From Escherichia phage 215Ecol030PP, in sequence record PP328843.1: a DNA stretch of 64,000 bases. The stretch is one strand, 5' to 3'. Made by a program: the position numbers and the translations under genes. The notes beneath the pieces were generated by a model. The model saw only the letters and a program-made list of their open reading frames with translations. It made no database searches and was not told the origin of the DNA. Each line of letters begins with the position of its first letter. Position 1 is the first letter of the stretch. Positions 42,345 to 42,803 of this stretch are shown here, in pieces.

Positions 42345-42803
42345 TTATTTTAAATCATCTGCCCAATCGAGTTTAAGAGGCTCTTTGTATTCACGGTCAA
42401 GTACAACCGGAATTTGTACATCACCGCTAAATGATAAGGGCCCAACATTATAAGACAATGTTATATGCGGTGTGTAATCATCAAAATCGTGTGTAGCACC
42501 TAGTGCCCGCGCATACATGTGTCGACAGCGCAGATATTCAGAATTTAGCACAAGTACAAGAGTCGATCCATCTTGTGTTTTCCACACTTCTAAATGTCCA
42601 GAAGAAGCTACTTCAAAACTTCCACTCGATGGAACATATGGAACATTTACTCTCGAATAACATATGGTCGAATGAATTTTTTCTCTAGGAACTGGATTAG
42701 GAACACGTAAAGAGCGCTGGAGTTCTTCCAGCGCGTCAAGTGTTAATTCTGAAAACTTAGCTGCTACATAAAGACCCGTTGAAAAGTCTTTAAATTCCAT
42801 CAT
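42345..42803 (-). CDS. acb1: 2H-family cyclic-nucleotide phosphodiesterase, anti-CBASS protein Acb1 (gene 57B)
   Basis: 152-aa ORF with two H-x-[TS]-x motifs (HSTICY, HITLSY); position next to 57A and length match T4 57B. Confidence 0.75.

Follow-up and report, generated by a model that had tools for sequence, protein, structure and literature searches.

Genes and spacers around acb1

The window analysed here is the whole 64,000-nucleotide stretch of Escherichia phage 215Ecol030PP (record PP328843.1). The sequence and its list of open reading frames place at 42345..42803 (-) a frame of 152 amino acids that begins with ATG and ends with TAA. On the basis of its Pfam, BLASTP and GenBank matches and of an AF2 model, we annotated this frame as acb1, the orthologue of T4 gene 57B, encoding an anti-CBASS 2H phosphodiesterase. 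Upstream of it lie 57A, for the tail-fibre chaperone (42800..43030, -; Pfam PF17594, E=2.7e-50), and gene 1, for dNMP kinase (43030..43743, -; Pfam PF21448, E=7.6e-104), the latter encoding 237 aa from its ATG and being 97% identical to T4 gp1. The gene 1 product is 241 aa long in both T4 and Bas37; the form in the window has a four-residue deletion and is otherwise 97% identical. Genes 3, 2 and 4 are also found upstream. In the other direction the order is ip5, ip6, trna.4, trna.3 and trna.2, followed by ten tRNA genes. The preliminary description had put the frame at the T4 57B position, and this is borne out by gene 1 and 57A on the upstream side and by the ipI locus, trna.4/.3/.2 and the tRNA cluster on the downstream side. 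The conserved Tequatrovirus place of acb1, after 57A and before the ipI locus, thus holds in the window.

The TGA stop codon of 57A overlaps the ATG of acb1 in an ATGA at 42800-42803, as it does in T4, and this overlap suggests that acb1 shares a transcript with 57A and that the translation of the two genes is coupled. The T4 late-promoter motif TATAAATA was matched 13 times in the window against 11 matches expected. No match stands immediately before acb1, ip5 or ip6, and the closest one falls inside gene 1, at 43386-43393 (-). An Rfam scan of 38000-44500 returned tRNAs and sub-threshold noise only, with nothing in or beside acb1, and no convincing opposite-strand frame was present in or beside the gene in the ORF list.

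Downstream of acb1, the T4 gene ipI is replaced by two genes. These are ip5, for an internal (injected) head protein of 85 aa (42014..42271, -; phrog_3499, E=1.2e-49), and ip6, for an internal protein of 77 aa (41704..41937, -; phrog_8111, E=1.5e-52). Together with acb1 they make up an island of three small genes, about 1.1 kb in extent, between the conserved morphogenesis and nucleotide block and the trna.x/tRNA region; it is thus bordered at one end by conserved housekeeping and virion genes and at the other by the trna.x ORFs and the tRNA genes.

Several side observations concern this second flank. The trna.3 orthologue (41062-41460, -) is 64% identical to T4 trna.3, while its neighbours trna.2 and trna.4 are 95% and 100% identical to theirs. 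Inside the tRNA cluster, between tRNA-Met and tRNA-Ser, a frame of 161 aa (39729-40214, -; phrog_16521, no Pfam match) occupies the place at which T4 has tRNA-Thr, tRNA-Ile and segB, and in one related record it is partly annotated as a putative homing endonuclease. The cluster of the window includes tRNA-His, -Asn, -Tyr and -Met, which are absent from the T4 cluster, and lacks tRNA-Thr and -Ile.

The three spacers of the island share an element of about 70 nt. The first, between acb1 and ip5 (42272..42344, -), consists of a TTTACA-N17-TACTAT promoter and a 13-bp hairpin (-17.4 kcal/mol, z=-3.56); the second separates ip5 from ip6 (41938..42013, -; fold z=-3.76) and the third ip6 from trna.4 (41646..41703, -; fold z=-3.80). 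TTTACA-N17-TACTAT recurs in all three copies, the third reading GTTTAC-T. Each hairpin extends over the spacer together with the -10 box; the folding energies range from -17 to -19 kcal/mol and the z scores from -3.6 to -3.8, and compensatory changes, which keep the stems intact, distinguish the copies. A generic sigma-70/terminator scan gave 15 sites against 14.2 in shuffled sequences, hence no enrichment, though it did locate the repeated TTTACA-N17-TACTAT sites. In T4 and PST, the 'promoter-early stem-loop' (PeSL) has the consensus TTTACW-N17-TAYWAT (PMC4122927). The cassettes of the window match this PeSL description, each combining the consensus promoter with a stem-loop and recurring at the edges of variable genes, and as such they are known biology. 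The acb1-ip5 spacer is identical to the 57B-ipI spacer of T4. Sequence comparison suggests that the spacer between ipI and trna.4 in T4 is a chimera of the ip5-ip6 and ip6-trna.4 spacers of the window, which is the outcome that recombination within PeSLs would produce.

Sequence, fold and proposed action of Acb1

The product of the 152-aa frame matched Pfam PF23474 (Acb1) at 202.4 bits (E=3.4e-60), far above the curated cut-off of 27 bits, and the match covers the whole profile (1-144/144). BLASTP aligned it to T4 57B (NP_049750) with 151/152 residues identical and 0 gaps, the sole change being D87N. Its best match in the PDB is Acb1 of Erwinia phage FBB1 (7t26/7t27; E=2.1e-61, 66% identity), with the HxT motifs in register. 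An exact-sequence look-up returned an identical sequence in GenBank, WWT42709.1, 'anti-CBASS protein Acb1' [Escherichia phage 215Ecol030PP]. At the DNA level acb1 matches 554 phage records, about 490 of them at 95% identity or more, and nearly all are from Tequatrovirus; the closest record over 39500-45500 is phage WL-3, at 98.2%. From the Acb1 matches and this distribution it follows that the window derives from a T-even phage. The family is still named 'RNA ligase' in PHROG (phrog_755) and in RefSeq, and an NCBIfam scan of Acb1, Ip5, Ip6 and Acb2 matched 0 models.

Both catalytic motifs of a 2H phosphoesterase are present. The first, H44-S-T46-I (residues 44-47; 42663..42674, -), aligns to the HTT of FBB1 Acb1, and the second, H113-I-T115-L (residues 113-116; 42456..42467, -), to its HIT. 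The T4 and FBB1 enzymes have been described as 2H phosphoesterase folds with the catalytic tetrad H44/T46/H113/T115 (Hobbs et al., PMC9117128), and an H44A/H113A mutant of the T4 enzyme is inactive (PMC9117128). This HxT/HxT tetrad is complete in the window protein, and in a family alignment of 33 members, with identity down to 35%, all four residues are invariant. Further invariant positions in that alignment are G10, Y12, S50, L82, V83, G102, D106, P112, E141 and L143. The preliminary description had read the frame as Acb1 on the strength of its two 2H motifs and its T4 57B position: coordinates, length and motifs, here HSTI and HITL, were exact, and the identification agrees with the Pfam and T4 57B matches and with the alignment of both HxT motifs. 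In particular, the catalytic histidines align with those of Acb1, with H44 and H113 unchanged throughout the family.

The ligand-binding residues are likewise retained. In T4 Acb1 the bases of the cyclic nucleotide stack on Y12, W74, F107 and W147, the adenine is read by E141, and residues 145-152 form a lid (PMC9117128). All five of these residues are present in the window protein, the same as in T4; across the family, Y12 and E141 do not vary and W147 is at least 90% conserved. The C-terminal lid, residues 145-152 including W147 (42348..42371, -), is identical to that of T4. An AF2 model built on the family alignment (mean pLDDT 88.9, pTM 0.82) has the compact 2H phosphoesterase fold with the C-terminal lid, and its top Foldseek matches were 7t26 (TM 0.97, rmsd 0.9 Å) and 7t27 (TM 0.94, rmsd 1.3 Å). 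The pLDDT of the lid is low, in keeping with its disorder in the apo state.

These observations make it very probable, as judged by homology, that the frame is the acb1/57B orthologue of a T6-like Tequatrovirus and that its product destroys the cyclic-nucleotide signals of CBASS. With 99.3% identity to the characterised T4 enzyme, the window protein should cleave CBASS cyclic nucleotides, and we infer that the N87 variant is enzymatically active. In the mechanism we propose, the lid would close the pocket over the cyclic nucleotide, the bases would be stacked on the four aromatic residues and the adenine read by E141, and the tetrad would promote attack of the 2'-OH on the 3'-5' bond, giving a cyclic-phosphate intermediate and then a linear product. 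Because the signal would be destroyed, the CBASS effector of the host would never be activated and abortive infection would be avoided. T4 57B was found by activity-guided fractionation as the cGAMP-degrading enzyme, the activity is absent in T4 Δacb1, and CBASS restricts T4 Δacb1 (PMC9117128); T4 57B also becomes conditionally important when the host expresses CBASS (preprint 10.1101/2025.11.20.689424). By analogy with T4 acb1, the gene may protect the present phage from CBASS in vivo. In sum, acb1 is here an already known gene at its usual locus, and its identification is correct but ordinary.

Internal proteins and other counter-defence genes

In the preliminary description, acb1 was taken to confirm that this neighbourhood is a counter-defence island. 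As logic this fails, since one gene cannot confirm its neighbours and 'confirms' is an overstatement; the island itself is nevertheless largely upheld by independent evidence from Ip6 and the T4 internal proteins. Ip5 begins with the targeting peptide MKTFKEF...ITE, that is MKTFKEFATKTTITE, and Ip6 with MKTYQEFIAE, so both carry a capsid-targeting peptide, MKT(F/Y)(K/Q)EF, and an (L/I)xE protease site. Cleavage at (L/I)xE is the rule for T-even internal proteins and would leave processed forms of 70 aa for Ip5 (after ITE) and 67 aa for Ip6 (after IAE). The N-terminal targeting peptide is all that Ip5 and Ip6 have in common with T4 IPI. Ip5 is identical to T6 Ip5 (Q38630), and 158 phage records, T6 among them, share the ip5+ip6 arrangement. 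In Bas37, the corresponding proteins are Bas37_0261 (Ip5, 85/85 identical) and Bas37_0260 (Ip6, 77/77 identical). That phage has two genes at the ipI locus, knock-out of bas37_0260 leads to specific sensitivity to McrBC, and Bas37_0260 is a capsid-packaged, injected inhibitor of McrBC type IV restriction (preprint 10.1101/2025.11.20.689424). By its 100% identity to Bas37_0260, Ip6 of the window probably inhibits McrBC. Two of the three genes of the cluster, ip6 and acb1, thus have counter-defence support, because identical or near-identical proteins have been tested experimentally. Most database records for Ip6 still read hypothetical or 'internal head protein'. A Pfam match of Ip6 to the IF3_C domain (E=0.0065) scored 16.8 bits, short of the cut-off of 34.8, and was set aside as noise.

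Elsewhere in the window, denV (33656-34066) is directly followed by the lysozyme gene e (34129-34620, -). The genes ipII and ipIII, which stand between denV and e in T4 and encode GmrSD inhibitors, are absent from the window. Their absence is consistent with a T2/T6-like internal-protein set. T4 Ip1, Ip2 and Ip3 each block one variant of GmrSD, a type IV restriction system (PMC12373910). A second anti-CBASS gene, acb2 (T4 vs.4; 31792..32055, -), lies about 10 kb from acb1, and its product is 88/88 identical to that of T4 (Pfam Acb2_Tad1_hairpin, E=7e-20). With acb1 and acb2 both present, the phage therefore carries a degrading enzyme as well as a sponge against CBASS signals. The tk.4 orthologue at 29642-30106 (-), a macro domain protein (Pfam E=5.7e-8), is only 57% identical to that of T4, with neighbours at 97-100%, so that the divergence is local to this gene.

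A genetic lead for ip5 comes from the published Bas37 transposon resampling tables, which compare K-12 with other strains (preprint 10.1101/2025.11.20.689424). In the comparison of K-12 with CFT073, the log2 fold change was -2.09 for ip5 (adj p<1e-5) and -1.56 for acb1 (adj p 0.003). The values were -0.01 and +0.13, respectively, for CFE299, and -0.13 and -0.83 (adj p 0.28) for CFE331, a table that was assigned to its strain by position in the file. Insertions in ip5 are thus about 4-fold depleted on CFT073, specifically so among the three strains, a point not discussed by the authors of the preprint. CFT073 encodes a GmrSD homologue, c5421 (PMC4437046). Because Bas37 ip5 insertions are depleted on CFT073 and not on CFE299 or CFE331, Ip5 may act against a defence of CFT073. 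We put forward, tentatively and at rather less than even chances, that Ip5 is a third injected counter-defence protein, directed against a defence of uropathogenic CFT073 that would most plausibly be GmrSD c5421. Under the same tentative proposal, the three genes ip6-ip5-acb1 would all serve in a fully functional anti-defence cluster, and T-even phages would trade its cassettes through recombination at the flanking PeSLs.

Alternative readings and comparison with known systems

The allele of the window raises the question of whether its Acb1 is fully active. The AAT codon at 42543..42545 (-) encodes N87, the sole difference from the Acb1 proteins of T4 and Bas37, both of which have D87, and the exact N87 sequence was found in one contig among 15 billion proteins. 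Column 87 most often holds D, which is kept even in the distant homologue of Burkholderia phage BCSR5 (9q2g); as D87 is the majority residue of the family, D87N may have a quantitative effect. Loss-of-function alleles of acb1 exist in related phages, with a nonsense mutation in Bas43 and mutated acb1 in Panoptes escapers of Bas35, and single-nucleotide acb1 mutations allow escape from type II Panoptes (PMC13577387). Given such natural and selected alleles, an intact acb1 frame is an incomplete proof of activity, and the N87 protein could be attenuated, inactive or shifted in specificity; it might, for example, have arisen under selection against setting off guards such as Panoptes, which sense the depletion of cyclic nucleotides. 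However, the catalytic and ligand-contacting residues published for Acb1 do not include position 87. The model places this residue after strand 79-86, at the start of helix 89-100 and away from the HxT motifs, and the exchange of D for N is isosteric. The column itself varies, with N in P0061 and P0103 (Serratia phage Muldoon), E in several members and A or S in distant ones. N87 is therefore probably compatible with activity, and we regard an impaired or altered enzyme as very unlikely.

The legacy name of the family invites another reading, in which the protein is an RNA ligase, or a LigT-like RNA-repair 2',5'/2',3' phosphoesterase, acting on RNA ends and not on immune signals. Acb1 and LigT do share the 2H fold, and Foldseek found a LigT match (E ~1e-4). 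The likeness to LigT is remote, however, at TM ~0.5 and 11-14% identity against TM 0.97 to Acb1; moreover, the cyclic-nucleotide-binding residues are all conserved in the window, and the fractionation and Δacb1 results for T4 57B cited above (PMC9117128) identify a cGAMP-degrading enzyme. We give this reading almost no credence. A different question is which defence an active Acb1 chiefly counters. Its main benefit could lie in the inactivation of other cA3- or cyclic-dinucleotide-based systems and not of canonical CBASS, a reading that is compatible with the main explanation. The substrate cAAA is also a signal outside CBASS, and acb1 insertions of Bas37 were depleted on CFT073, for which the defence systems selected in the preprint include no CBASS. 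On CFE331, which carries a type III CBASS (preprint 10.1101/2025.11.20.689424), the acb1 effect was only -0.83, with the reservation on table assignment given above. Against this, the CFT073 defence list is a selection and not a complete inventory, the depletion of acb1 on that strain could reflect polarity of the insertions on ip5, which lies downstream and is itself depleted, and T4 acb1 is tied to CBASS by direct genetic evidence. We consider this reading unlikely, though less so than the two before it. The preferred reading remains that of an active Acb1 directed against CBASS signals.

Since acb1 was characterised in 2022 and the exact protein has already been deposited as Acb1, the finding matters little by itself. 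Its practical value lies in annotation, many related records reading 'hypothetical protein' or 'RNA ligase', and in the prediction of host range, where a phage with both Acb1 and Acb2 would be expected to escape many CBASS systems but to be exposed to Panoptes-type guards. The neighbourhood is of more interest: T-even phages use this compact site, prone to recombination, to exchange injected anti-restriction proteins, and Ip5 is a candidate there with a ready genetic lead.

Among known systems, T4 Acb1 (57B, NP_049750, UniProt ACB1_BPT4) agrees with the window protein in its 152 aa, tetrad, stacking residues, E141 and lid. The T4 gene also follows 57A with the same overlap and has an identical downstream spacer; the differences are D87 in place of N87 and ipI in place of ip5+ip6 downstream. 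Bas37 (Escherichia phage KarlGJung, MZ501089) is colinear to the base over bas37_0260-0262, with the same gene lengths and spacers, 100% identical Ip6 and Ip5, and Acb1 (Bas37_0262) at 151/152. It differs in having D87 and, beside its tRNA-Leu gene, a homing endonuclease that is absent there in the window. The FBB1 enzyme (PDB 7T26, apo; 7T27, with 3'3'-cGAMP) is 66% identical over 141 residues, with a model rmsd of 0.9 Å, but has F/Y at the positions of W74/F107 in T4 and the window, and a one-residue insertion after residue 80. Acb1 of Burkholderia phage BCSR5 (PDB 9Q2G, 9Q2Y) shares the 2H fold with a lid and the Acb1 label, yet at ~18% identity and weak E values of 0.02-0.13 it belongs to a distant branch. 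E. coli LigT, coronavirus ns2 and the rotavirus VP3 2',5'-PDE share the 2H fold and two HxT/S motifs, but with TM ~0.4-0.55, 11-17% identity and other substrates they fall outside PF23474; of these, coronavirus ns2 and rotavirus VP3 likewise break down a second messenger of immunity, 2'-5' oligoadenylate.
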